Origin: Nitrosopumilaceae archaeon
Lineage (GTDB): Archaea; Thermoproteota; Nitrososphaeria; Nitrososphaerales; Nitrosopumilaceae
Direction of reading: 5' to 3'
Length of the DNA stretch: 64,000 bases
Assembly: GCA_965208905.1 (NCBI GenBank)
Contig: OZ242365.1
Span: forward strand, 1,024,001 to 1,088,000
The notes under the pieces were generated by a model. The model had not been told where the DNA came from and searched no databases. It saw only the letters and a program-made list of their open reading frames with translations. A program made the position numbers and the translations under genes. This document shows, piece by piece, positions 215-58,674 of the stretch (position 1 is its first letter; every line of letters starts with the position of its first letter).

Positions 215-1686
215 GGGAATTATATACAAAAGTACACAGCCTCGGCTGTACACTCATGCCTTTTCTGACGGCTCTTCTGTATTGAATGGAGCATAGAAGG
301 TGTTGGTTTGTAGCCCTCCTTATGCCCCGGCTGTCTTAGGACGACGTTCCCCGCCGCCCTATACAGGATATTCCAGGCGGCATTGACATCCGCGTGAAAC
401 ACTCTGGTACAATTAGTGCAAATGAATTTGTCGCGTGTGACACGCGACTTAGCATCCACCGTACCACACACATGGCACGTCTGGCTCGTGTATTTGGCAG
501 ATGCCCCCAACAGCGGTATGTTGTGTATCTCACACCACTGCGCAAGCTTGCGCAGGAACTCCCCGACACGGTTCTCCCGCATTGAACGGTTCATGGAGCG
601 TTTGTAATTCCCACCATGCGTGGTCATGTCCTTTACGGAGAGCGACTCGACCACGACTGCGTCCACACCATTAGTTATCTGCGCAATCGTCTGATTTATG
701 GTGTTCGCAGCTATGTTGTTGGCCTTCCTGTATAGCCGCTTTATTTGGTCATTCAATATATGCCACTTCCGGCCATGCCGTGTCTTGTGGTCACGCAAAC
801 TCTTTAGCGCGTCAATCTCCCGCAGGATTGCTCTATGGCGGGTGTTGTGTATTGTAACGTTGCCATTTGTGTCGACAGTGACGGCGAGATGCTTGCCGCC
901 CACATCAACACCCCGCATTACACCAGTATTGCGGTGCGACTCTACCGGTTCATGTATGGCAATATACAGCTCAAACATGTGGTCTGACGGCTTTGTATGC
1001 TTGTCCACCCGTTTGGTGACATCAACTATCTTGAATGAGCGCATGCCCCATGATGTATTGATGGGCTTGGCGGTCTCTACAATACCATATCCGGGGATAT
1101 GTATGGTGTGCCCACCTTTTCGTACAGGCGGTGTAACGGAACAAAGTATGATGCGGCCGTCTTTGCGGCGGTACGGCGCGTGGTCTGAGCTGTCATCTAT
1201 AACCCTTCTACATGCGACGGAGGCATCCTGTATGGCGCCCCTACCAAACGATGTGGGGCACTCGCGCAGCCATGTATGTTTGGCGCGCCACCCCGTAAGC
1301 TGTTTGTGCATGCCGTACTTTAATGCCCTCTTTGACGACCCAAAATCATATGTATGGTAGTCATAGTTCAGCGTACCGGACGTAACACCCTTCAACGTGT
1401 TCGGTAGTTTGAAGGGCTGTAGTATGTCCACTACCACCCTCTCCATGTATTCGCCGCCAAACAAATACTCTGATACGGCGCGGTTGTACACATATCTTGA
1501 CGCATGATTCGTGCGGTGCGCCCACTCTGCAAACAACACATCCATTCGTAGCGGTACCTTGACTATCCGTATCATAATGTATAATACGGTATGTTGGTAT
1601 TTAAGAGGAGTTGCTGTATGGACGCGTTCCGTGGTTCAGGTATTAACTCTCAGAATCGAGGTTGTGTACTTTTGTATATGATTCCC
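215..1686 (-). mobile_element. Non-autonomous TIR element carrying tnpB (IS1595-like ends)
   Basis: 30-bp TIRs at 215-244 (GGGAATTATATACAAAAGTACACAGCCTCG) and 1657-1686, 28/30 match; no transposase; no clean TSD. Confidence 0.8.
220..1575 (-). CDS. tnpB: RNA-guided endonuclease TnpB family protein
   Basis: RuvC-I GVDVG, RuvC-II VVESL, TSQTCHVC...CTNC zinc ribbon, RuvC-III HADVNAAWNI. Confidence 0.93.
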   Translation of the reverse strand: MIRIVKVPLRMDVLFAEWAHRTNHASRYVYNRAVSEYLFGGEYMERVVVDILQPFKLPNTLKGVTSGTLNYDYHTYDFGSSKRALKYGMHKQLTGWRAKHTWLRECPTSFGRGAIQDASVACRRVIDDSSDHAPYRRKDGRIILCSVTPPVRKGGHTIHIPGYGIVETAKPINTSWGMRSFKIVDVTKRVDKHTKPSDHMFELYIAIHEPVESHRNTGVMRGVDVGGKHLAVTVDTNGNVTIHNTRHRAILREIDALKSLRDHKTRHGRKWHILNDQIKRLYRKANNIAANTINQTIAQITNGVDAVVVESLSVKDMTTHGGNYKRSMNRSMRENRVGEFLRKLAQWCEIHNIPLLGASAKYTSQTCHVCGTVDAKSRVTRDKFICTNCTRVFHADVNAAWNILYRAAGNVVLRQPGHKEGYKPTPSMLHSIQKSRQKRHECTAEAVYFCI

Positions 1687-1782
1687 TTAATTTACGGTAA
1701 GCGCCGATAATTACACAGCTCAATAACCATACAAGCCTATTTTGATTGACCCGGATGTAAAGTTCGGAGGTCGGGGTGGCAG

Positions 1783-3204
1783 TTATCCTACGGTCCACTT
1801 GCTGGCTCCCTCATCACCGATGTGTACGCCGAGTATCCCATCTGGGCCTACGGCTATCACCGCGTATACTGTATCATCAACCCGCAGGATGTCTATGCCA
1901 AGCGCCATGTACCCTACGAGGCGCCCGACAACCTCAAGGTCCGACTCCCCCTCGTACAACCCTATATGGCCCTGTGTGTATCCCACATGGTATATGACAT
2001 CATCTATCTCTACCACCTCATGTATCACGTTGACACGCTTCACATTGTCCAGGTCTTCCCACGTTCTGGCGGGGTTCCTATCTAGGTGAATCAAATACGT
2101 CTGTATGCCATCAAAGGATGCGTCCACTAGGATGTATGTGCTGTCATCCTTGTGCGCCACCCCGTGTATGTGTTTGACACCCAGCAGATTAAAGTTGTCG
2201 GAGAGTGCTCCGGACCTTCGTATGTCATAAGGATCAGATACATCATACTGCTGTATGAGCCCCTTTGATACAGTTATCACGAGTGGCTTGCCGTCAACAT
2301 CAATTAGAACGGAATCTAGCACAGAGTTGTAGTGCGCAGTACCCGCCAGGGTGATGTTGGATGGGTCTGACAGGTCTGGCACACGAAATCCATTTGGGTA
2401 CATCTGAACGACATAAGGCTGTCCGTTCAGGGACCAGATGTCCACAGATGGCTCATCATACGAGTCCATCAGTTCCGGCTGATCCGAATCAGACATATCC
2501 AGAACATGTAGCCCGTCATCACCGGTGGATGCCACCACATATTCAGTACCGTTGATGCCCACCACCACTATATCATGAACGTGGTATCCCTGCAGGTGGA
2601 ACGACACCTCAAGTCTATTGCCACCGATATTATCAAAATTGGTTATACCCAAACGGGGGACAGTATATCCCAAGCTGTCAAAGGTCCTGTCGGGTGTCGG
2701 ATTTGCCGTGCCGTACATGAGATGACCCTCGTGGGAGCTGTGCCCCATTCCGAGCACATGGCCAAGTTCATGCGCCATCACGTACCTGATTATATCCGGG
2801 TTCGTGAGGCTGGCGCCATACACATCCGGCTCTGGTGAATCAAAGTCTATCCCGATTCGATGCCCCAGGGAACTGTCATGGTATTCCACCCCCCAAGCGT
2901 ACTCTGAATCAATCCACTCTATTAAAACATCGTGTCGGTCATCATGGCTTGGCGTGGCTATGATTCCGGGATTCACCTCAGTCCACGCGCTTATCCCGTC
3001 ACGGATGGCCTCCTTTATACTCTCCCAGTAGTCTTCGGCATAATCTGGGTACCTGTCCTGTAGCTCAGTGAATATGTCCGGGTGTATCCTGTATGTGATG
3101 ACCTGCGCATCAGCTGACTGTATGCCGTATGGGGCTGCCACCATGACTGCCACTACTGTTGCCATGCTTACCAAAGTTAGACTCTTGTCTGTCATATCCA
3201 CCAC
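1783..3204 (-). CDS. Secreted matrixin-type (M10) zinc metalloprotease with C-terminal LVIVD-like beta-propeller repeats
   Basis: Signal peptide, HELGHVLGMGH zinc motif followed by Met-turn LMY, repeats such as GLHVLDMSD and GFRVPDLSDP. Confidence 0.75.
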   Translation of the reverse strand: MVDMTDKSLTLVSMATVVAVMVAAPYGIQSADAQVITYRIHPDIFTELQDRYPDYAEDYWESIKEAIRDGISAWTEVNPGIIATPSHDDRHDVLIEWIDSEYAWGVEYHDSSLGHRIGIDFDSPEPDVYGASLTNPDIIRYVMAHELGHVLGMGHSSHEGHLMYGTANPTPDRTFDSLGYTVPRLGITNFDNIGGNRLEVSFHLQGYHVHDIVVVGINGTEYVVASTGDDGLHVLDMSDSDQPELMDSYDEPSVDIWSLNGQPYVVQMYPNGFRVPDLSDPSNITLAGTAHYNSVLDSVLIDVDGKPLVITVSKGLIQQYDVSDPYDIRRSGALSDNFNLLGVKHIHGVAHKDDSTYILVDASFDGIQTYLIHLDRNPARTWEDLDNVKRVNVIHEVVEIDDVIYHVGYTQGHIGLYEGESDLEVVGRLVGYMALGIDILRVDDTVYAVIAVGPDGILGVHIGDEGASKWTVG

Positions 3205-3756
3205 GCATCTATCTTGGACCCTACTTGCAGCAAGTGGTATGTGCTAATATGTTGGGGGGTTTGATGTGTTGCTGTCATGAGAATATTATATCCGGCACTT
3301 GGCTGAAAAGACTTGACACATTCGTCCATGTTTGGAATATATAGTCTCTATCCATATATTATTGTCTTCGTGATTGGTATGGATGGATGTCCTACTAACA
3401 AATAGTACTGCGGCAGCTAGATATACAATGGGGTGAGCCACTCTACAAGCGACTTGGTGAGCCTATATCATTACTGCTCAGGATGGCAGACAGTGGTTCT
3501 ACTCGGTTCGCTGGACACCTCACCGTTCACATATACAAGATGAGTGAGGTGTATCCATCTAGGGAGTTCCAGATGTTAAACTACAGGGCCAAGATAGGTG
3601 GCCTGCGAAGCGTCAAGCATGGACTAAAGTCGAAGGTGTGGTGTCTGTGAAGGCGCGCATCATTCGACTTTGGGATGATGCATAAGATGTCGTATCAATC
3701 GTGTTTGTGACAGAACCTAACAGGCTATATTAGCTCTAATCTGAGGTTTACACATA

Positions 3757-4416
3757 ATGAAGCTATACATCATGTTAGCCGTGGCCATCGCCGTTGCCAG
3801 TGCGCTCATAGTGTATACTGTATCCACACAGAATGATGTTTCTCCGGACATTCACACAATCTCACTTGTATCTACAATTGTGGATAACGCCTCTCCTGCG
3901 ATAGGTGGCCCTGACGCTCCCATAACACTCGTGGAGTTTGGAGACTATCAGTGCCACTTCTGTCACCAATTCTTTGTAAACACCAAAGACCGCATAATCA
4001 CAGACTATGTTGACACTGGTAAAGTGCGTATGATCTTTAAAGATTTTACCATAATTGGACCTGACTCCATACGTGCCGCTGAAGGTTCATGGTGCGCTCA
4101 GGAACAGAATCTATATTGGGAGTATCATGACATATTGTATCATAACTGGGATGGCGAGAACACTGGCTGGGCATCTGAAGCAAACCTCCACAGACTTGCC
4201 GCCGAGGTGGGCCTTGATGTGAATACATGGTCTGAGTGTCTGAACTCTGGTAGGTACTCTGATGTAATCTCATCTAGTAGTGATGATGCGCGTGAACTGG
4301 GTATTACAGGAACACCATCCTTCTTTGCAATACTGCAGAACCAGACGATTGTAAATATACACGGTGCGCAACCATACGAGCAGTTCGCCCAAGTATTCGA
4401 CTCCATGCTGCAGTAG
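3757..4416 (+). CDS. DsbA-family thiol-disulfide oxidoreductase
   Basis: N-terminal TM, EFGDYQCHFC CxxC motif, GITGTPSF cis-Pro loop. Confidence 0.9.
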   Translation: MKLYIMLAVAIAVASALIVYTVSTQNDVSPDIHTISLVSTIVDNASPAIGGPDAPITLVEFGDYQCHFCHQFFVNTKDRIITDYVDTGKVRMIFKDFTIIGPDSIRAAEGSWCAQEQNLYWEYHDILYHNWDGENTGWASEANLHRLAAEVGLDVNTWSECLNSGRYSDVISSSSDDARELGITGTPSFFAILQNQTIVNIHGAQPYEQFAQVFDSMLQ

Positions 4417-4505
4417 ACTCAGAGACTGTATGTCACATTATGTATGATATCTGATGTAAGCCACACTGCCATCACACATACTCTCTGTCATACTATGAAT
4501 GCGTT

Positions 4506-5980
4506 AGAGTTTATGCGTAATTGCACAACTTGGCAGCATTGGGTGGTCCCGGCCCGTTCTGGCCGGCACCGCCCACCCCGGTACAGCCCATCGGCTCACC
4601 GCCGACGGAATTCTGGCGTTCCGGTTTGTGCGCCCCCGACAAATGCCATTCGGCATCTGCACTACGACTCTCTAACAGCCGCATGATGTTAAGAAGTGTA
4701 ATTCTCCGACCATGCGTGAGTGTGCGGTCGGCGGCCGCCTCTTTCAGCAGCCGTGTTATGTGGTATAGTGTGGTGTTTGATGATATAGTGGTATTACACA
4801 TCAGAGCCAAAATGGTACGAAATAGTATGTTGGCACCCGCGTTGGCATCCCGTTCCCTAATTGTACGACATGTATAGCACCACATGTCGCGGGTCGGTAT
4901 TTTACCGGTATTGGTCCCAATATGTTTTAGATCTCCGCCACATTTGAGACATTTCGCGGACGTATTTCGTGGTTCGATGCTTATATGCGGCAGACCCTCG
5001 GACTCGGCTGCGTTTTTGAGTGCATTCTGTCTCTGGCCCGTATTCAGTGTGGATTTTGTTTTGCCACGGATAAATGGTGATATTGTATAGTTTTTGGTGT
5101 ACAGTCGGTGTATGCTCAATGTTTCATGCCCTATGCCGTATCCGGCATTGGCCATCTTCCGGGCTTCCACACATACATCATTATGGATGCGGTTTTTGTA
5201 CACACTCCATGCCCTGTTTGTGTATTTTGTCATAATGCGGTTATCGTTACGCCGCTTCACCTTTAGCATCTTGCTGTGTGCCTTGTTGTATTCACGTGCA
5301 TTGCGGTTGGGCCGCATAACTACAGTGCCATCAGCGAATGCATAGGTGTTGTTTTTGGCATTCATATCCACACCGGCCCAGGATATGGGCTCGCTATACG
5401 GAACGTCTTCCTTGTATGTAATGTATATCTCATTATATCTTAGTAGTACAGTCTTTGGTATTCTACCAGGCTTGGTAAGCTCATCCACTACATATGGTGG
5501 TACAGGGAAGGCCAGCCATGGCTTATCTGGACGGCCCCTACCGTATATTGGTACATGTATTGATGGTGTGCCATTCCATCGTTTTGATGTATCATCAAAT
5601 GCCAGCTCGAACCTGTCAGTCTGCGCCACAGGGTTGTGGTAGTGTGGGGCACGTACATGCACATTAACCAACTGATTCGTACGCCATGCCTTGTAGTTTC
5701 CATGCACGCTTTGTATTATATAGTCGGCGAAGCGTGAGTGGTATACGCCAGTACGGTGCACCGCCATACGATATAGTTTCTTGCCGCGCACACCCTTGCG
5801 TAATACCTTCGCAGCATGGTTGGACGCAGCCCCCACATAATGTAACAAACCACCCAAAAGATGTCCACTGTCATGTGTTACATGGATGGTGCGCATTATT
5901 GTGCCCATACACATGATGTATAGCTTATGGTATTTATATATACGGTACTGTACATCATGATTCGATTACGCATAAACTCT
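4506..5980 (-). mobile_element. Non-autonomous TIR element carrying tnpB (putative IS5-like ends)
   Basis: Perfect 16-bp TIRs AGAGTTTATGCGTAAT at 4506-4521 and 5965-5980; GTT on both flanks (possible 3-bp TSD). Confidence 0.75.
4511..5914 (-). CDS. tnpB: Divergent TnpB/Cas12f-like RNA-guided endonuclease
   Basis: AGVDMN (RuvC-I), GHETL (RuvC-II), TSAKCLKC...CYTC zinc ribbon, ERDANAGANI (RuvC-III). Confidence 0.85.
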   Translation of the reverse strand: MCMGTIMRTIHVTHDSGHLLGGLLHYVGAASNHAAKVLRKGVRGKKLYRMAVHRTGVYHSRFADYIIQSVHGNYKAWRTNQLVNVHVRAPHYHNPVAQTDRFELAFDDTSKRWNGTPSIHVPIYGRGRPDKPWLAFPVPPYVVDELTKPGRIPKTVLLRYNEIYITYKEDVPYSEPISWAGVDMNAKNNTYAFADGTVVMRPNRNAREYNKAHSKMLKVKRRNDNRIMTKYTNRAWSVYKNRIHNDVCVEARKMANAGYGIGHETLSIHRLYTKNYTISPFIRGKTKSTLNTGQRQNALKNAAESEGLPHISIEPRNTSAKCLKCGGDLKHIGTNTGKIPTRDMWCYTCRTIRERDANAGANILFRTILALMCNTTISSNTTLYHITRLLKEAAADRTLTHGRRITLLNIMRLLESRSADAEWHLSGAHKPERQNSVGGEPMGCTGVGGAGQNGPGPPNAAKLCNYA

Positions 5981-6265
5981 GTTGTATATGACATTCTGGT
6001 ATGTGCTCCTCGCAGTCTGCATGTTGCATGCGGCAAGTCTAGTGGCTGCTTGACGGCTCAGCTATACGCGAACCATTGGGAGTCGTGTATCCTACCTGTA
6101 TGTCGCACCCACATGTGAGCCGTCCTACTGGTATATCGTATAGTATGACATCCATCTCTTTAAAATGACTGTTCGTACAGTGGGCTGCACGCGTGTTTAT
6201 TCAGGTATGTAATTCCCCATTATACCCATAAAAACCATATATGTAGGCATTATAATGTCATGTAG

Positions 6266-7648
6266 ATGGCTGCTGGAATTGATGACATATCGGTCTACAT
6301 ACCAAAACTATACGTGGATACTGAAGACTTTGCTCAAGCTCGAGATGTCAATATAGACAAGATGCGCAAGGGCTTGGGCATATACCAGATGGCCATAGCT
6401 GACAACAACCAAGATCCTGCATGCCTGGCGGCTAATGCGACTTACAAAATTATGAAACGCAATGACATACATCCAAAAGATGTGGGCCGGCTCTACATAT
6501 CTACTGAATCCTCATTTGATGAATCCAAAGCCATGAACGCGTATGTGGTGGGAATGCTTGAGCAAGTGTATGGGCCTGGTACATTTGGGCACTGCGGAGG
6601 TGTCGAGACAAAGTTTGCATGTGTGAGCGGCTCTTATGCACTATATGACAATCTGAACTGGATAAGGGCCGGGGAGGCCGACTCCCAGTATGCACTAGTT
6701 GTAGTCTCTGATATTGCAAAGTATGATTTAGGTTCTAGTGGTGAGATGACACAGGGCGCCGGAGCCGTTGCGATGCTCTTGAGTGATGACCCGCATCTAC
6801 TCACCTTTGATCCCAAGGTGACTGCCACATCCATAAGTGATGAATATGACTTTTACCGTCCTTTCGGCAAGGATACCCCCATAGTCCACGGCCAATACTC
6901 CAATCTACTATACCTGCTGCAAGTCCGAAAAGCCTTGGATCTCTACAAGAAGAAGGTACTATCAACCAAACTCATAACGCCGGGCCCTGATGAATCCATA
7001 CTGGATTATATCGACTATTTGAACATGCATCTTCCGTACAGCGCCATGGGACGTAAGGCTTTGGCGTATCTGCTGCGACATGAATGGAGGCATCTCCCTC
7101 GCTGGAAGTCATTGATAGAGAAGATTGGCATGGCCGAACCTGTGGCACAGCATCCTGGTACCATCGAGACCATACTTGCCAATCCTGAGTTTATAAAAGA
7201 TGATAGCAAGTTTAACAGACTACTCATGGAGACTGATGAATTCATTGACATATATGAAAAGAAGCTGTCTAGCTCACTCATTGCATCAAAGATGATTGGC
7301 AACCTCTATACCGCCTCATTATATCTGGGACTTAGAAGTAGTCTGGAATATGAGCATCGCAAAGGTGTAGACCTGGCAGGCAAAAGAGTTGGCTTTGGCT
7401 CATACGGTAGCGGAAGTAGCGCCATGGTGTTTAGTGGCGTAATCACCGAAGAGTATGCTGATGTTGTCTCAAAGATGAATTTAGACTCTGAGATGAAGAA
7501 CCGGCGCCGTTTGACGTTGGACGAATATGAACTACTACACCGTGGGCAGATGCCTCTCACTGAATCCATACTGTCCGGCGATGGTGAATTCATACTTACC
7601 GATGTGAATAAATCAAACAGTGAGCGACAGTATGTCTTCAAATCATGA
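6266..7648 (+). CDS. Hydroxymethylglutaryl-CoA synthase
   Basis: ETKFACVSG catalytic Cys, EMTQGAGAVA, HLPY, GNLYTASLY and GSYGSG motifs. Confidence 0.93.
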   Translation: MAAGIDDISVYIPKLYVDTEDFAQARDVNIDKMRKGLGIYQMAIADNNQDPACLAANATYKIMKRNDIHPKDVGRLYISTESSFDESKAMNAYVVGMLEQVYGPGTFGHCGGVETKFACVSGSYALYDNLNWIRAGEADSQYALVVVSDIAKYDLGSSGEMTQGAGAVAMLLSDDPHLLTFDPKVTATSISDEYDFYRPFGKDTPIVHGQYSNLLYLLQVRKALDLYKKKVLSTKLITPGPDESILDYIDYLNMHLPYSAMGRKALAYLLRHEWRHLPRWKSLIEKIGMAEPVAQHPGTIETILANPEFIKDDSKFNRLLMETDEFIDIYEKKLSSSLIASKMIGNLYTASLYLGLRSSLEYEHRKGVDLAGKRVGFGSYGSGSSAMVFSGVITEEYADVVSKMNLDSEMKNRRRLTLDEYELLHRGQMPLTESILSGDGEFILTDVNKSNSERQYVFKS

Positions 7649-8160
7649 GCGACAACCCTCTCAAAGATATACTCTTTGAGCGTTTGAATACCCACAATGC
7701 AGAACGACTAATATCTACACATAACTATGCAGAATTAATAAAATATGTCATACCATATATGATGGACAAAACCCATAATGTCGTACCATACGAAGAGTCG
7801 GCAGTTGCAATATCCACAGGCATACTGCACTATATACTGACCGTCTCTGCCACGCCCAGCCAAAGACAGGTTACCTACAAAGATGTAGATGTTGATATAG
7901 TGCTGCCCGACATCCGACAACTAAACAGAGACCCTTCCTTGGCTGTTATAATACAGATATGCCCCAACTGTGATGTGGCAAGACATAGACTACACAATAC
8001 GACCACCATACAACCCATACAGAAGAACATCTGGCTGTTGACCCCCTACGACTGTTACTATCACATATTTGATGGCTCGCCATCCTTCTCTGACCTATTA
8101 TACGATATGATAAAATTCTCGCGCACCCATAATCAAAACAAACTAGGGCTATTAGGATAA
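7645..8160 (+). CDS. Hypothetical protein
   Basis: 171-aa ORF translationally coupled to both neighbours. Confidence 0.6.
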   Translation: MSDNPLKDILFERLNTHNAERLISTHNYAELIKYVIPYMMDKTHNVVPYEESAVAISTGILHYILTVSATPSQRQVTYKDVDVDIVLPDIRQLNRDPSLAVIIQICPNCDVARHRLHNTTTIQPIQKNIWLLTPYDCYYHIFDGSPSFSDLLYDMIKFSRTHNQNKLGLLG

Positions 8161-9410
8161 TGTCTTTTGTGTGGCACCCCAATACACAGATGTCTGAGTG
8201 GAAGGAGTTTGATCATATCGTCAGCGGCGATGGCATGTGGCTACAAGACTCTACAGGACATCGTATGCTAGATGCCGTATCTTCAATGTGGTGCAACGTT
8301 TGGGGACACTCTGAGACCGAACTGATAGATGCACTGTACAATCAGGCCTGTATGATACCCCACGCATCACTCTTCAACATTACACATACCCCTGCAGAGT
8401 CTTTGGCCGGGCACCTGATACAGATATGTCCTAACATGAGACATGTCTTTTATACAGATGATGGCTCGACTGCCATGGAGGCCGCATTCAAGATGGCTGT
8501 ACAATACTGGCAGAATCAGAAATCCCCCAAAAACATGCTGGCAAGTCTTTCGAATGGATATCATGGTGACACAATAGGCGCAATGTCGGTGGGATACTCG
8601 GATACTTTCTTTGGAGCATATCGCCATATGACTCCTAGATGTATACGCATTCCTACACCAAATCATGGCGTGACCAATTGGAGCGATACGTTGGATCATT
8701 TATCTGAGACTTTGGAGTCGAACAAAAACATTGCTGCTGTAGTCATGGAGAGTGGTGCGCAGACTGCCGGTGGCGTAGTGATATATCCTGAGGCATTTCA
8801 GACTGCCGTATCTCAGATATGTCACAAAAACGATACACTACTTGTGGTGGATGAAGTGGCCACCGGTCTGGGTCGTCTATCTCACATGGCCGAGTACGCT
8901 GCGCAACAATCCAATCCGGATATCGCCGTATACAGCAAGATGCTCACTGCCGGCTATATGCCTCTGGCCGCCACACTTGCAACTGACAAAATATATGATG
9001 CCTTCTTGGGGGACTACTCTGACCATTTACATCTCTTTCATGGTCATACATTCTCTGGTAACCCCTTGGGTGCTGCTGTGGCCAACCGAAATTTAGAGTT
9101 GTATGCAGAACGCCAACTGATACAACACGTGCAACAGTTATCTCGCATATTTGCTGATGGGCTAGATGTAATGTCTGATACCAAAGGAGTACTTGATGTG
9201 CGGTACAAAGGATTACTGGCAGGCATAGACATTGATATAAACTGCGATGTCTCCTCTGCCAATTATACGATATATCAGATTGGTCGTAAAAATGGTGTAT
9301 ACCTGCGAACATTGGGGAACACAATACTTGTGGTGCCACCCTTGGCCATTTCACCCGAGGAACTATCACAGATTCTCACTGGCGTCTCGGACACCATCCT
9401 CGCCCTCTGA
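8160..9410 (+). CDS. bioA: Adenosylmethionine-8-amino-7-oxononanoate aminotransferase
   Basis: VWHPNTQM, SMWCNVWGH, YHGDT, DEVATGLGR and HGHTFSGNP class-III aminotransferase/BioA motifs. Confidence 0.93.
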   Translation: MSFVWHPNTQMSEWKEFDHIVSGDGMWLQDSTGHRMLDAVSSMWCNVWGHSETELIDALYNQACMIPHASLFNITHTPAESLAGHLIQICPNMRHVFYTDDGSTAMEAAFKMAVQYWQNQKSPKNMLASLSNGYHGDTIGAMSVGYSDTFFGAYRHMTPRCIRIPTPNHGVTNWSDTLDHLSETLESNKNIAAVVMESGAQTAGGVVIYPEAFQTAVSQICHKNDTLLVVDEVATGLGRLSHMAEYAAQQSNPDIAVYSKMLTAGYMPLAATLATDKIYDAFLGDYSDHLHLFHGHTFSGNPLGAAVANRNLELYAERQLIQHVQQLSRIFADGLDVMSDTKGVLDVRYKGLLAGIDIDINCDVSSANYTIYQIGRKNGVYLRTLGNTILVVPPLAISPEELSQILTGVSDTILAL

Positions 9411-13514: not shown

Positions 13515-13854
13515 GGGATTGTTGCGTAATTCGATCCTGGCACCACTGAAGCCCAACCAATAGATTTTTTGATCGTTGATCCCTTACACTCGACAATGAA
13601 TAGATGACCGGACTATTGGAAATACTACCATCTGCATTATACTGGACAACCGCCGCCGGTTCGGCAAGATCCGGACCATCACCTGAAACATCAAGGTGCT
13701 GAACCGACTCAAGTGTGCTCGGATACGTGAGATGGATATGCCATCCTACGGCATGGTGTCATGTGCGTGACCGTACAAGTTAGTATGTTCCACCAATGAA
13801 ACCACGGCGGGGCACATGCGAAAACAAGATCAGATGGAGTTACGCAACAACCCC
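13515..13854. mobile_element. Degenerate non-autonomous TIR element (possibly IS5-like)
   Basis: TIRs GGGATTGTTGCGTAATTC / GGGGTTGTTGCGTAACTC (16/18). Confidence 0.65.
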
Positions 13855-16589: not shown

Positions 16590-16671
16590 AGAGTTAGTGT
16601 CGTAACTCCTCCTGAACCAGCAAAAATTGGGCAAATTTTACGCCTAGAATTTAGGTTATGACACTAACTCT
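16590..16671. mobile_element. 82-bp MITE
   Basis: 17-bp TIR AGAGTTAGTGTC(G/A)TAAC; GTATGG duplicated at 16584-16589 and 16672-16677. Confidence 0.85.
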
Positions 16672-19558: not shown

Positions 19559-19629
19559 TGTAGTATATGAAAATTATGGGAATTATATAGTTTGTAACAA
19601 ACGAATATAAGGCAGAATCCCCCCCCCGT

Positions 19630-20994
19630 ATGGCAGGCATTAAGAATAGAACCATATTCACAGGGGATAATCTAGAGATATTACGTGGCTTTCCAGACGA
19701 ATTTGTAGATTTGATATATCTAGACCCACCGTTTAACTCCAAACATAACTATGCCGCTCCAATAGGTTCAAAGGCAGCCGGGGCCGCATTCAAGGATACG
19801 TGGAATCTAAGTGATATTGACTTGGCATGGTGGGGCGAGATCCAATGTACGAGTCCAACTGTATACAAGGTGCTTGAGATGGCCCGTGCAACGGCGGGAA
19901 AGTCAGCAATGTCGTATTTGATTTACATGGCAATACGCATATTGGAGTTACATAGAGTTTGCAAATCAACAGGTTCATGTTATATTCACTGTGATTCGAC
20001 TATGTCCCACTATTTGAAGATGGTACTTGATGCAATATTTGGCATTAAGAATTTTCGCAATGAGATACTCTGGAAACGGTTTAGTGCGCATAATGATGGC
20101 CGAAGGTATGGCAAGGTAACTGATACTCTATTATTCTATGCTAAGACATGTACACATACATGGAATAGAGTTTATACTCCATACTCAGATGAATATATAC
20201 AATCAAGTTACCGCGATGAGGATGAACTGGGCCGTTACACGCATAGAGCCTTAACAGCAGAAGGGCTATCGGGGGGAGGGTATGAGTATGAATTTCATGG
20301 ACATCATCGTATTTGGAAGAGATCTTTGGAATCCATGCAGCGATTAGAAAGTGAAGGAAAAATACACTTTCCGAAAAAGAGTGGAGGTGTGCCTAGATAC
20401 AAGATATATCTTAAAGATGCTCTAGGCATACCTTTACAAAATATTTGGACAGACATACCCATTGTAGGCGGTAATGAAAAACTACATTACCCAACTCAAA
20501 AACCCCTCGCCCTACTGGAACGTATTATCAAAGCATCAAGTAATGAGGGGGATATTGTATTGGATCCATTTTGTGGATGTGCTACAGCTTTGAGCGCGGC
20601 AGAGAAGTTAGATCGGCAATGGATAGGTATAGACATATCTACAAAAGCGTATGATTTGCTCAAAGACCGTCTTGTCAGAGAGGCGGGCCTTGACAAGTAC
20701 ACTAAAGGGGCGGGTATACTAATACACCGCACCGACATTCCAATACGCAAGGGCAGGCGGTCTAAAGACATCAAAGACACTCTATACGGTAAACAGAGGG
20801 GGCGGTGCAATCTCTGCCCTCACTGGTTTGAGTACAGACAAATGGACGTGGATCATATCATACCCAAGTCCAAGGGTGGGGCAAATGATGATGCAAACTT
20901 ACAGTTGTTATGCAACAACTGTAACAAGATCAAGGGTAATCGCACTATGGCAGAGGCAAGGGCAATACTCAAAGAAAGAGGGCTTATCGAGTAA
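19630..20994 (+). CDS. N6/N4 DNA methyltransferase fused to a C-terminal HNH endonuclease domain
   Basis: IYLDPPFNS (motif IV), YPTQKP, DPFCGCAT (motif I); then CNLC..DVDHIIPKSKGG..NLQLLCNNCNKIK HNH. Confidence 0.92.
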   Translation: MAGIKNRTIFTGDNLEILRGFPDEFVDLIYLDPPFNSKHNYAAPIGSKAAGAAFKDTWNLSDIDLAWWGEIQCTSPTVYKVLEMARATAGKSAMSYLIYMAIRILELHRVCKSTGSCYIHCDSTMSHYLKMVLDAIFGIKNFRNEILWKRFSAHNDGRRYGKVTDTLLFYAKTCTHTWNRVYTPYSDEYIQSSYRDEDELGRYTHRALTAEGLSGGGYEYEFHGHHRIWKRSLESMQRLESEGKIHFPKKSGGVPRYKIYLKDALGIPLQNIWTDIPIVGGNEKLHYPTQKPLALLERIIKASSNEGDIVLDPFCGCATALSAAEKLDRQWIGIDISTKAYDLLKDRLVREAGLDKYTKGAGILIHRTDIPIRKGRRSKDIKDTLYGKQRGRCNLCPHWFEYRQMDVDHIIPKSKGGANDDANLQLLCNNCNKIKGNRTMAEARAILKERGLIE

Positions 20995-21251
20995 TGGGGT
21001 TAAGGGAGTTGGGGGTATTAATTGGCTTAATTGTTGTAATGGTCATAGTGGCTATTTTAACTGCACTATGTGAATTTATGTCATCACAATCAAATTTAGA
21101 AGGTCTGTGGGCCGAGACTCATGAACGAAATTTATCAATTATCTGTTTTGTTGCTAACATGTTTAAGAATGACACAGCGGTGGAACAATCGCAAAATATT
21201 ATCACCATACAAAGGTATGATAACACACAAACCCACAATCAGTCTTGCTAA
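20994..21251 (+). CDS. Small hypothetical membrane protein (IS1595 passenger)
   Basis: Coupled to the MTase stop codon; N-terminal TM; overlaps an antisense ORF. Confidence 0.4.
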   Translation: MGLRELGVLIGLIVVMVIVAILTALCEFMSSQSNLEGLWAETHERNLSIICFVANMFKNDTAVEQSQNIITIQRYDNTQTHNQSC

Positions 21252-21422
21252 ATCATCTTGCCACCACTCTATTTGTGACGGCCCGCCAATCTGAACTCCC
21301 AAGATAGGAATTGTTAGGAATAAACCTAAGGCCAATCCAAAAAATATTACTGGTTTGCGTATGGATGTTGATCCCATAATTAAGTTAAAGTTAAAGATCA
21401 AATAAGTGTTACTGTTATGCAA
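21135..21422 (-). CDS. Small hypothetical two-TM protein (IS1595 passenger)
   Basis: Follows the transposase stop; two hydrophobic segments. Confidence 0.45.
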   Translation of the reverse strand: MHNSNTYLIFNFNLIMGSTSIRKPVIFFGLALGLFLTIPILGVQIGGPSQIEWWQDDLARLIVGLCVIIPLYGDNILRLFHRCVILKHVSNKTDN

Positions 21423-22377
21423 TCAACGCTTCATAAGTAAGCCTCTTTCCCATCATACCTCTAACTAGACTTACCATCATGTCTATTGTGTCTAGATTCC
21501 GAATGTTTAGCCGTCCTGCAAACTCGTTAACATACCTGTGTAGATGCTTTGCCGATATGTGATGAAACGTGCCGTAATAGCCACGCTTTAACAAAGCCCA
21601 GAAAGACTCTATGCCGTTGGTATGCGCCATGCCGTTTACATATTGACTAACGGAATGGTTAACCGTTTCATGATTAGGTAGGTTTTGGTATGCCCTACTC
21701 TCGTCCGTATAATGGGTTGCTCCCGTCTTGGTGTTTTGTTCAATAAATTTACCAAGACGGGCAGCGGTTGTATCCGGTACGGGTTCGGCTCTGATGTTAC
21801 CTGTCTTTCTATCTTTGATTCCAACCACGGCGGTTTTGTTGGCGCCGCCTTGACTGTGTGGGGTTTTCTTGTCTGCATGCTTGTTGGATTCCTTGCCTCC
21901 GAAATATGCCTCGTCAATTTCGACTGGGCCTTCCATCTTGTCTGTACCTGCCAGTGTATGCCATGATTCACGTAACCTTTGTACCATGAACCATGCCGAC
22001 TTTTGGGTTATGCCCAAATCCCTATGCAGTTTCATTGAACTAATACCCTTAACGTTGGTCATGAACTGATATGTTGCAATGGCCCATTGTTGATATGTCA
22101 TATGGGATTGTTCCATGATTGTTCCTACCTTGACACTAAACCGCTTGTGGCAATTCCCCACACCTGCACAGTAATACGGCATCTTTTTGTACTTTGTTTT
22201 TTTGATGTTGGTATTACCACAAAACGGGCAGCATGGCTTATCGTCCCAAATTGTACGTTCAAACCACTTTTCGGCGGCATCATCATCAGGAAATATCTTG
22301 AATAGTTTTGCAAGCGTTATTCCTTCACGGTGACTTTTACCGGGTGCTTGTTGGCTCATAGTATACCTTAGAAACAT
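21415..22377 (-). CDS. IS1595-family transposase
   Basis: N-terminal CPFC zinc ribbon, VEIDEAYFGG, YTDE, VNHS, HTNGIESFW; likely start 22359. Confidence 0.95.
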   Translation of the reverse strand: MFLRYTMSQQAPGKSHREGITLAKLFKIFPDDDAAEKWFERTIWDDKPCCPFCGNTNIKKTKYKKMPYYCAGVGNCHKRFSVKVGTIMEQSHMTYQQWAIATYQFMTNVKGISSMKLHRDLGITQKSAWFMVQRLRESWHTLAGTDKMEGPVEIDEAYFGGKESNKHADKKTPHSQGGANKTAVVGIKDRKTGNIRAEPVPDTTAARLGKFIEQNTKTGATHYTDESRAYQNLPNHETVNHSVSQYVNGMAHTNGIESFWALLKRGYYGTFHHISAKHLHRYVNEFAGRLNIRNLDTIDMMVSLVRGMMGKRLTYEALIA

Positions 22378-23449
22378 GGATTATATAAAGATTGTTACAA
22401 AGTATATAATTCCCAAAATTATGTCCGCTAGTCATTTGACTTCGCCTCCATCCAGTTGGGGCCCTTTGCCTTGGTCTTCTCGGCCGCTTTCTTGGCCGAG
22501 AACGCCTTGAGCGAAGTCTCGTAGTTGGCTATGTCCAGCGAAAAGTGGAGTCGCCTCTTGTTGTAATGCTGGATATACTCGGGCAGGCTCTCGTAGTGAC
22601 CTATCTCTTCCTCGATGGTTCTGTGGAACCGCTCAAGCTTCCCGTTCATCTGGGGGTGGCATGGTCTTGAGTTCATCAACTCGATACCCCTACCCAAGAG
22701 CTCCTCCTCGAACGCGGTGGACTTCCAGGATCCTTTGGGGTTGCCCTTGCGCATGCCCACAAAGCAAGATCTATTGTCCGACAGGATGGTAGCCGGCGTT
22801 CCGAACCGCCTAATTGTTTACTGGAGCGCCACCACGGCGTTCTCCGAGGTAGCCTAAGTGAACCGGCTCGCCCCGGTCACGCATCTTGAGGCATCGTCCA
22901 GGAATGTGATGAGACAAAGCCCACTCATACGCGAACTCTTCATGACGTGCCAGTTGGTGTACCACATGGAGTTGGAGTGCTTACGCTCGTATCGCACCCA
23001 CTTATGCTTTCGTGACTTTGCTTCGGATGGTGCGACTCGCTCACTCTCCTTCATAATCAGGATACTCGCTGGTAGATTATATTATGACCCGCTCTGCGCA
23101 GGCTTATTGCCGTGCGTACCACGCCTACCTCCTCCAACTGGTAGGCGTCCAGTACCAACTGTACCTCATCCGGCGACGGCGATAGCAGGGCGGGCCTGCC
23201 CGGAGTGCGCGGAATAGGCGCGGATCCGGTCTTGCGGAACTTGGCGTACGGCCTCCGAATGTGCCTTGATGTCACTCCGAGCTCGGCGGCCACCACAGAA
23301 GATCTCCTGCCTTTCTCAAGTTGGTTTATGGCGTACCGGATGGACTTTGCCGTAAGACGCTTTGCCATATTTTTTCTTGATCGATACAGCGTATAATGCT
23401 CCTTTATGGTGCGCTTGATCTTAGTCGGACCTAATTTCCGTACAATAGA

Positions 23450-58654: not shown

Positions 58655-58674
58655 TTCGATTACGCATAAATTCT
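58655..58674. repeat. Solo end matching the 5' TIR of the second tnpB element
   Basis: TTCGATTACGCATAAATTCT vs TTCGATTACGCATAAACTCT at 5961-5980 (19/20). Confidence 0.7.

Follow-up and report, generated by a model that had tools for sequence, protein, structure and literature searches.

Six branches of TnpB that are associated with DDE transposases (DDE-1 to DDE-6) and flanked by inverted terminal repeats have been described computationally (Altae-Tran et al. 2023, PNAS, PMC10691335). According to the parts of that work that concern us here, the 3' end of such a tnpB gene is no more than 250 bp away from the transposon end, and mobilization in trans is suggested by solo TnpBs that share these ends. 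The sections of a 2026 review that cover the topic name ISL2, IS630, and IS1031 as the partners of DDE-associated TnpBs and treat these rare prokaryotic associations as lacking an explanation, given that cut-and-paste transposition breaks the donor site in any case (PMC13565253). Here, we analyze a 1,475-bp element with a divergent tnpB gene at positions 4506-5980 of a 64,000-nucleotide stretch of DNA from a sponge-associated Nitrosopumilaceae archaeon (contig OZ242365.1, positions 1,024,001 to 1,088,000; "the window"). With a TnpB riding a DDE transposon bounded by terminal inverted repeats (TIRs), this element is a further example of a rare arrangement that had already been described computationally.

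Two other groups of elements serve as points of reference. In the pertinent sections of the same review, IS200/IS605 elements have neither TIRs nor target-site duplications (TSDs) and encode a Y1-type TnpA, and in the solved complexes of Fanzor the target-adjacent motif (TAM) that is read includes the 5' TSD, with the 3' TSD falling within the omegaRNA scaffold (PMC13565253). Literature searches, mostly at the level of titles and abstracts, returned no report of activity, a TAM, or an omegaRNA for any prokaryotic DDE-associated TnpB and none on TnpB in thaumarchaeal sponge symbionts or under the stem "Nitrosopumil-".

The analyzed genome (G000) is a single contig of 2,214,775 bases and 99.57% complete, with the window copy at G000 1028506-1029980. 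Window 4506-5980 is confirmed as an element of 1,475 bp whose 16-bp TIRs are perfect and whose TSD is 3 bp long (GTT), and the exact ends as well as the position of the stop codon within the TIR (TAA, complement of 4511-4513) are those given by the original prediction. The element and its surroundings read as follows:

4486-4505, minus strand: putative template of the omegaRNA guide, reached by read-through past the TIR; its length of 16-20 nt is assumed by analogy to TnpB and Fanzor (from the sections of PMC13565253 used here)
4503-4505: TSD copy on the tnpB 3' side, GTT on the plus strand and AAC in gene orientation
4506-4521: TIR at the tnpB 3' end, reading AGAGTTTATGCGTAAT on the plus strand and holding the stop codon
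4506-4690, minus strand: conserved, predicted RNA structure and probable omegaRNA scaffold, overlapping the last ~60 tnpB codons and ending in the TIR
4511-5914, minus strand: tnpB open reading frame, 467 aa from the ATG at 5914 or 465 aa from the conserved ATG at 5908
5931-5940, minus strand: TATA-like box TATATAAATA, ~27 nt upstream of the conserved ATG
5965-5980: TIR at the tnpB 5' end, exact reverse complement of 4506-4521 (16/16)
5981-5983: TSD copy on the tnpB 5' side, GTT on the plus strand
5981-5986, minus strand: candidate TAM as suggested by flank counts, in gene orientation TAC followed by the TSD AAC
58659-58674, minus strand: solo 5'-type end with 1 mismatch in 16, flank ...TAC ACT

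The TSD, which had been proposed as a possibility from GTT on both sides, could be read directly from an empty site. Among public contigs compared over window 3800-6700, a 2,666-nt contig of X7, a DNA run recorded as sponge metagenome, joins window position 4502 to 5981 and skips 1,478 bases; three letters at the joint fit either side, and a single GTT is left. Since 1,478 bases equal the 1,475-bp element plus one TSD copy, this contig shows both the ends and the 3-bp TSD directly. The empty allele belongs to a related strain; presence of the insertion at 4506 thus varies among strains. In X5 and X7, the tail TIR continues into other flanking sequence in several contigs (loose ends at 4504-4507), as expected of a multi-copy element. 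The empty-site contig additionally skips 33 bases at window 6102-6136, upstream of an HMG-CoA synthase gene, which is a small indel between strains.

When the TIR pattern was searched with up to 3 mismatches, the window gave 3 matches compared to 0.63 expected (2/100 shuffles reach 3). The third of them, at 58659-58674 with 1 mismatch, is the solo end that had been reported as 19/20 matching at 58655-58674, a count that is reproduced once the four inner bases CGAA are included. At a tolerance of 2 mismatches, the whole genome has 34 matches compared to 1 for a reversed control pattern, and several different cargoes lie between the same TIR, in agreement with the earlier view that this end belongs to a dispersed family. 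Two further links proposed within the window stood up less well: The resemblance of the TIR to the ends of an element at 13515-13854 is real but partial and makes a weak link, and the AGAGTT shared with a repeat at 16590 is present but comprises just six bases and ties the two together equally weakly. The former is a repeat of ~340 bp with inverted ends GGGATTGTTGCGTAAT / GGGGTTGTTGCGTAAC that are related to yet distinct from the TIR studied here, and ends like these also occur at G000 1863742 and 1928611.

The only long open reading frame inside the element is tnpB (4511-5914, minus strand, 467 aa); the element carries no transposase of its own and is thus non-autonomous. The original prediction expected that a genome search with the TIR would lead to a cognate DDE transposase of the IS5/IS4 kind. 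Indeed, a DDE_Tnp_4 gene was found inside the same ends, broken in this genome and intact between homologous TIRs in five other genomes of the genus, and homologous tnpB genes share these ends. The refuting condition set in the original prediction, a TIR family never seen with a DDE transposase and homologous tnpBs without such ends, accordingly did not hold. The forms of the family are the following:

G000 1564409-1565993: type C, the sole DDE_Tnp_4 (PF13359) match of this genome, between the same TIRs
G000 1561191-1562634 and 1570175-1571618: type B, a 100% identical pair of 1,444 bp with the TIRs of the element
DDE-only form: ~2.0 kb and ~1.5-1.7 kb (L080, L084, L065, L086, and L088)
Composite form: TIR, DDE gene (antisense), tnpB, TIR, 3.2-3.6 kb (L037 at 996-4409, L039, L048, and L055)
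tnpB-only form in relatives: ~1.5-1.7 kb

The five related genomes contain 23, 16, 8, 8, and 8 matches to PF13359, a subset of which lie between TIRs of this family. Intact transposases of the relatives comprise 393-532 aa with DDE_Tnp_4 (PF13359, E 2e-20 to 5e-23) and HTH_Tnp_4 (PF13613) domains. The enzymes resemble IS5-family models with scores below the curated cut-off and appear to be related to IS5. Both the tnpB-only and the composite forms of the relatives are flanked by TSDs. Composite L037 is particularly instructive: Its positions 1-1935 correspond to a complete DDE-only element and include a degenerate internal TIR, and positions 1936-3414 align with a tnpB-only element minus the left TIR. 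It therefore reads as a DDE-only IS followed by a tnpB-only element, which indicates that the modules interconvert at TIRs. Within one genome, the tnpB part of a solo element is 94.3% identical to that of a composite, on a par with the 93.4-96.4% among composites. Scanning metagenome contigs with an alignment of the transposase yielded 24 loci that were all remote in sequence (24-34% identity) and lay outside this family, which left 8 DDE-only elements for comparison.

The type B elements carry an unrelated, OrfB_IS605-type tnpB that a frameshift divides in two (325 + 92 aa). The broken DDE element is situated between the two copies, which are inverted relative to each other and differ in their flanks and TSDs (ACT and AGT). 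The original prediction had argued for independent capture because the protein at 4511-5914 is unlike the first TnpB of the window; this difference is real, with the first one residing in an element (215-1686) of another TIR family that has 8-bp TSDs, and type B strengthens the argument by placing a second, unrelated tnpB between the very same TIRs.

ISL2 and IS1031 are groups of IS5 with 3-bp TSDs, and the eukaryotic PIF/Harbinger transposons form a DDE_Tnp_4 group. Our family resembles IS5 and Harbinger in its combination of DDE_Tnp_4 and HTH_Tnp_4, short TIRs, a 3-bp A/T-rich TSD, and derivatives of the miniature inverted-repeat transposable element (MITE) kind, while it differs from IS5 in that its transposases score below the NCBIfam cut-off and that the window element has a TnpB-omegaRNA module instead of a transposase. 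As in what is reported for DDE-1 to DDE-6 in the parts of PMC10691335 drawn on above, TnpB resides within symmetrical inverted terminal repeats with the DDE transposase together or in trans, its gene has the 3' end less than 250 bp from the end of the element, and the ends of solo TnpB elements are nearly identical to those of transposase-bearing copies. Beyond that account, as far as these parts of it go, our analysis contributes an empty allele, statistics on TSDs, the series from DDE-only over composite to solo forms, covariation in the predicted omegaRNA, and a flank bias specific to tnpB.

The copies of the element in this genome are listed below:

G000 63120-64594, 187535-189009, and 1028506-1029980: full copies A1, A2, and A3 (A3 is the window copy)
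G000 1013696-1015098: fourth copy, 63% aa identity, with only a degenerate candidate left end
G000 1525633-1526237 and 1787773-1788651: two halves of one copy
G000 463690-463899 and 395907-395943: 3' fragments
G000 2020378-2020711: MITE of 334 bp in which the initial 146 and the final 188 bases remain, i.e., the promoter region and the whole conserved tail

A1, A2, and A3 are 89-91% identical, all have open frames, and the ratio of non-synonymous to synonymous substitutions (dN/dS) is 0.20-0.22, which shows several diverged copies under purifying selection. A search by nhmmer with an alignment of the tail found one extra partial tail only (G000 2024216-2024343). The two half-copies are 262 kb apart with a 6-base overlap of the element (positions 874-879), suggesting a rearrangement through something inserted there.

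The protein start is probably the ATG at 5908-5906 (MGT...) and not the one at 5914, since the first position reads ATA in copy A1 and the proteins of homologues start with MGKI or MVKI. Upstream of it, the TATA-like box is kept in 5/5 copies compared (A1, A2, A3, the 5' half-copy, and the MITE); an internal TATA ahead of the start had been proposed before, and we place it at 5931-5940. This box is a candidate internal promoter that would probably give a leaderless mRNA.

Several lines of evidence agree with the earlier assignment of the gene as a divergent TnpB/Cas12f-like one with an intact catalytic triad. The Pfam TNB domain (PF07282, Cas12f1-like) is matched with 35.3 bits compared to a cut-off of 26.3, and the family profile matches Cas12m (UnCas12m4a, E 2e-13), Cas12f, and TnpB chains in the PDB, with E264 and D356 aligned to Cas12m motifs. 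The RuvC residues D183, E264, and D356 and the residues C322, C325, C346, and C349 of a C4 zinc finger (CxxC..CxxC) between RuvC-II and RuvC-III are invariant across 22 family members; when 32 distant TnpBs are added, D183, E264, C325, C346, and C349 remain so, and conservation of D356 and C322 is 90% or more. An AlphaFold2 (AF2) model from a deeper alignment of 55 rows reached a mean local confidence (pLDDT) of 81.7 and a global one (pTM) of 0.72, and we set aside the model of an earlier run on 22 close relatives alone (pLDDT 51.4). Using Foldseek, the AF2 model matched AsCas12f (8dzj, TMt 0.60, E 4e-14), ISDra2 TnpB (8h1j, TMt 0.60), and further 8iaz (TMt 0.55), ISFba1 TnpB, and the Fanzor2 structure 9b0l over ~410-450 columns (408-449 for 8dzj, 8h1j, and 8iaz). 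The modeled protein thus appears to have the WED-REC-RuvC fold of solved TnpB/Cas12f structures and, as a TnpB, is a predicted RNA-guided nuclease.

Relatives of this protein are few. Among 1.84 billion sequence representatives there was one full-length relative at 50% identity or more, with the next full-length TnpBs 25-30% identical (E ~1e-11 or weaker). In 301 genomes of the family, full-length relatives occur only in the genus of the window (G000 and 5/9 other genomes), together with three partial relatives in three other genera. By these searches, the TnpB clade is isolated and genus-restricted. The nearest outgroup TnpBs (L121:31-1303 and L128:1085-2290, other genera) comprise 371-382 aa and are flanked by 31-36-nt inverted repeats that are 77-81% complementary.

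We consider it likely that the locus is a non-autonomous IS5-like (DDE_Tnp_4/HTH_Tnp_4, Harbinger-type) element with a promoter, a tnpB predicted to be catalytically intact, and an omegaRNA scaffold between its TIRs. A DDE transposase supplied in trans would bind the TIRs and move the element by cut-and-paste with a 3-bp staggered cut of the target. Transcription from the internal TATA promoter would give both the tnpB mRNA and a 3' omegaRNA, with the TIR as part of its scaffold and a guide transcribed from the DNA adjacent to the TIR on the outside. TnpB-omegaRNA may then cut the cognate empty site (left flank ending in C, TSD, right flank), which would favor restoration or retention of the element by recombination, while the occupied site would be spared since the C of the empty site is replaced there by a T of the TIR. 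The strong orientation-specific C before the TSD (TAC in this genome) would be the imprint of the TAM. This geometry matches the placement of TSDs in TAM and scaffold given for Fanzor complexes in the sections of PMC13565253 summarized above.

For this reading, we compared the flanks of 27 tnpB-bearing insertions oriented by tnpB, 6 from this genome and 21 from relatives. Left out of this set, among 32 loci, were those with an end missing or off the contig (L033, L044, L046, L047, L050, L059, L061, L062, and L063) as well as L051 and L053, which duplicate the flanks of L032 and L045; the fourth copy (G000 1013696-1015098) was likewise excluded from TSD and flank counts. An exact 3-bp TSD is present in 22/27 insertions. 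Its first base is A in 27/27 and its third base T in 13/27. On the tnpB 5' side, the base before the TSD (position -4) is C in 25/27 insertions, compared to G at the mirror position of the 3' side in 10/27 (p = 3e-5), and 7/8 left ends in this genome read TAC-A as judged by reading of the flanks. With DDE-only elements oriented likewise, C occupies -4 in 2/8 cases (Fisher p = 4e-4 versus tnpB-bearing insertions), and the composites have it in 4/4 compared to 0/3 DDE-only elements sharing their left end (p = 0.03). We therefore read the orientation-specific C before the TSD as a candidate TAM imprint.

Several points weigh against the proposed element and its TAM. The type C transposase is a pseudogene that spans three frames with an in-frame stop, which makes present mobility doubtful, and since this is the sole cognate transposase gene of G000 the element is probably immobile in this genome at present. 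The three full copies are 9-11% diverged and hence not recent. Two assignments fall short of curated models: The relatives' transposases score 45-56 bits against the 140-bit cut-off of the NCBIfam IS5 model NF033581, and the TnpB itself reaches 43.3 bits against a cut-off of 100 for NF040570 (guided_TnpB; E 2.8e-11, residues 162-365 only), by which score it is a divergent member of TnpB. Regarding the flanks, 5/27 insertions lack an exact TSD, the DDE-only controls for the TAM are few (n = 8, 3 with intact TSD), and both type B copies, with their unrelated TnpB, show the same C-A flank, which fits a shared transposition machinery equally well.

The last point leads to the strongest competing explanation, according to which the anatomy is the same and TnpB works, but the one-sided C-A flank reflects a target preference of the transposition complex, caused by asymmetric subterminal sequences or orientation-biased integration, and not a TAM imprint. 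We regard this as possible, though on the unlikely side. Besides the C-A flank in 2/2 type B elements, which have another TnpB lineage, it draws on the A at TSD position 1 that 6/8 DDE-only elements have as well and on the identity of TAM and transposase target site in IS200/IS605 as stated in the relevant sections of PMC13565253, so that the two signals are perhaps inseparable. Yet DDE-only elements show C at -4 in 2/8 cases in the composite orientation and also in 2/8 in the other (by reading), the left ends of composites and the three DDE-only elements that differ so sharply at this position are ~96% identical over ~1 kb, and the TIRs in this genome are perfectly symmetric over 16 bp.

An improbable alternative is that the copies are immobilized relics whose TnpB is kept for a host function, e.g., RNA-guided regulation or defense. 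The broken cognate transposase and the age of full copies that nonetheless have open frames and a dN/dS of ~0.2 would fit, as would the frequent immobilization and exaptation of TnpB reported in the parts of PMC10691335 at hand. On the other hand, the catalytic triad is intact, unlike in most exapted forms described, copy A3 still has perfect TIRs, and purifying selection could predate the settling of the copies. The end family must also have been mobilized recently, given a type B pair that is 100% identical over 1,444 bp at different sites, and strains differ in whether they have the insertion at 4506.

The original prediction had described a long GC-rich read-through tail at the end of the gene. 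Its GC-rich part is confirmed, with 62.7% G+C in 4522-4690 compared to 46.9% in the remainder of the element, but the read-through is better understood as an omegaRNA scaffold of which the tail peptide would be the coding shadow. Over the last ~185 nt, mean column identity is 82% in 16 copies whose proteins are 52-62% identical, and this conserved block runs through the stop codon up to the last base of the TIR. RNAalifold predicts 55 pairs in the tail with 96.8% of cells paired; 13 pairs show compensatory changes, compared to 7.0 +/- 1.5 in shuffles (0/500 reach 13) and 2-6 in slid controls in which partners were shifted by 1-3 columns. One of the compensatory pairs, U-A in 9 rows and C-G in 7 others, connects a position of the TIR with an upstream CCAAG(U/C)UGUGC. 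For the window copy, the predicted folding energy of the tail is -83.5 kcal/mol (z = -3.21), and several predicted G-U pairs fit the sense strand of tnpB. Synonymous divergence drops 2-3 fold, from 0.27-0.34 over the first 400 codons to 0.09-0.16 over the last 67, and the AF2 pLDDT is below 50 for residues 416-467.

The tail is therefore probably an omegaRNA scaffold that overlaps the end of the reading frame and ends in the TIR, a predicted RNA for which Rfam holds no described family; an Rfam match to Giardia U2 (19.7 bits, gathering score 100, E 0.12) was taken as chance. That the tail is instead conserved for the C-terminal ~65 residues of the protein appears quite improbable. As a protein it is almost invariant in 22 sequences and stays in frame within the 334-bp MITE, but such selection would leave unaccounted the compensatory pairs in excess of every shuffle and slid control, the low synonymous divergence, the low model confidence for residues 416-467, and conservation past the stop codon. 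Metatranscriptome contigs of X22 and X23 with 93-97% likeness contain pieces of the tnpB coding sequence (4757-4888, 4838-5045, 5228-5385, and 5383-5780); these contigs show neither strand nor ends, may derive from DNA, and are neutral with regard to transcription of tnpB or omegaRNA, with 4506-4756 uncovered.

There is next to no chance that the locus is a tnpB-only element of IS200/IS605 (IS1341 type) that depends on a Y1 TnpA and has coincidental inverted repeats. TnpB is classically a gene of IS200/IS605 or IS607, and tnpB-only elements are common, but here we see TIRs, a 3-bp TSD that the empty site corroborates, a DDE transposase inside the same TIRs, and 0 matches to Y1 transposases (PF01797) in a 99.6%-complete genome although the same search was positive in 6/14 control genomes. 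The element does resemble the IS1341 type as a tnpB-only unit of ~1.5 kb in which a predicted omegaRNA overlaps the tnpB 3' end and takes its guide from the flank; the TIRs, the TSDs, and a genome without a Y1 gene set it apart from that group, whose elements have subterminal hairpins. Similarly, an IS607 origin was rejected because serine recombinases (PF00239) had 0 matches in this genome, with the same search positive in 12/14 control genomes.

A CRISPR effector was considered as well. The element resembles Cas12f and Cas12m in its best PDB matches (UnCas12m4a, E 2e-13 by profile; AsCas12f, TMt 0.60), while differing from them in being multi-copy and TIR-bounded with neither a CRISPR array nor a cas gene adjoining. 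No tandem or CRISPR array was detected within window 2000-9000 and no cas gene in or beside the element; its neighbors encode a DsbA-like thioredoxin (3757-4416) and HMG-CoA synthase (6266-7648), and this reading was rejected. Finally, the family shares with Fanzor1, which resides in DDE transposons (Mariner, Harbinger, hAT, and others), the placement of a TnpB homologue inside a transposon with TIRs and TSDs. Unlike Fanzor1, it is archaeal and compact (465-467 aa), and the model compares poorly with SpuFz (9ceu, TMq 0.28) relative to AsCas12f (0.55).

How TnpB serves a transposon has been explained only where the element is of the scarless, single-strand, or serine-recombinase kind, and this family is a compact natural system for asking what TnpB does for a cut-and-paste transposon. 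All forms are available, from DDE-only over DDE plus tnpB and tnpB-only to a MITE that keeps the promoter and the predicted omegaRNA, and the element offers perfect TIRs, an observed empty allele, a candidate TAM, and a predicted omegaRNA of ~185 nt. If the C(A) before the TSD is a TAM imprint, it would be evidence from natural populations that TnpB-omegaRNA decides which insertions of a cut-and-paste DDE transposon survive. The element would also be a prokaryotic counterpart, in a sponge-associated archaeon, to the arrangement of Fanzor in DDE transposons, and its divergent predicted nuclease of 465 aa with a possibly very short TAM adds a candidate for genome editing.

The 2.2 Mb of this genome contain 77 TNB-domain (PF07282) matches, and grouping of TnpB copies by nucleotide similarity gives families of 32, 13, 12, 3, 3, 2, 2, and 2 besides singletons. 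Two elements of the window bear on the vehicle of the largest family:

215-1686: first TnpB element of the window, 1,472 bp, with 21-bp TIRs (GGGAATTATATACAAAAGTAC) and 2 mismatches between the arms
19578-22414: IS1595-like element, 2,837 bp, with TIRs GGGAATTATATA(G/C)TTTGTAACAA and an 8-bp TSD (AAAATTAT)

The former belongs to the 32-copy family (GGGAATT TIR), many members of which have 8-bp TSDs by flank reading. In the latter, the minus-strand gene at 21415-22377 encodes an IS1595-family DDE transposase (PF12762, E 1e-40), and 19630-20994 encodes a fusion of an N6/N4 DNA methylase with an HNH nuclease. Since the outer 13 TIR bases of this element and of the 32-copy family are the same, that family may be mobilized by an IS1595-type enzyme; IS1595 is not among the DDE partners of TnpB named in the relevant sections of PMC13565253. 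With IS5-like elements with 3-bp TSDs (the element at 4506-5980) and IS1595-like ones with 8-bp TSDs (the 32-copy family) as the proposed DDE vehicles, we tentatively raise the possibility, short of an even chance, that the whole TnpB load of this lineage left its Y1 or serine TnpA vehicles for DDE transposons, with the C(A) being a TAM imprint.

The family of 12 B-like tnpB loci (e.g., G000 768349-768975, 1379899-1380513, and 251155-251769) forms elements of ~1.4 kb with inverted repeats of 14 to more than 30 nt near both ends that differ in sequence between subgroups (e.g., CTGTCAAATCTTAG... and GGGCTGTGACGTTATCTGCGCG...) and look subterminal rather than terminal. Outside the window, at G000 ~988400-990500, peptide motifs recur at regular spacing on both strands in the pattern of a CRISPR-like array, and a degenerate end of the DDE-element type at G000 990593-990608 adjoins this repeat region.

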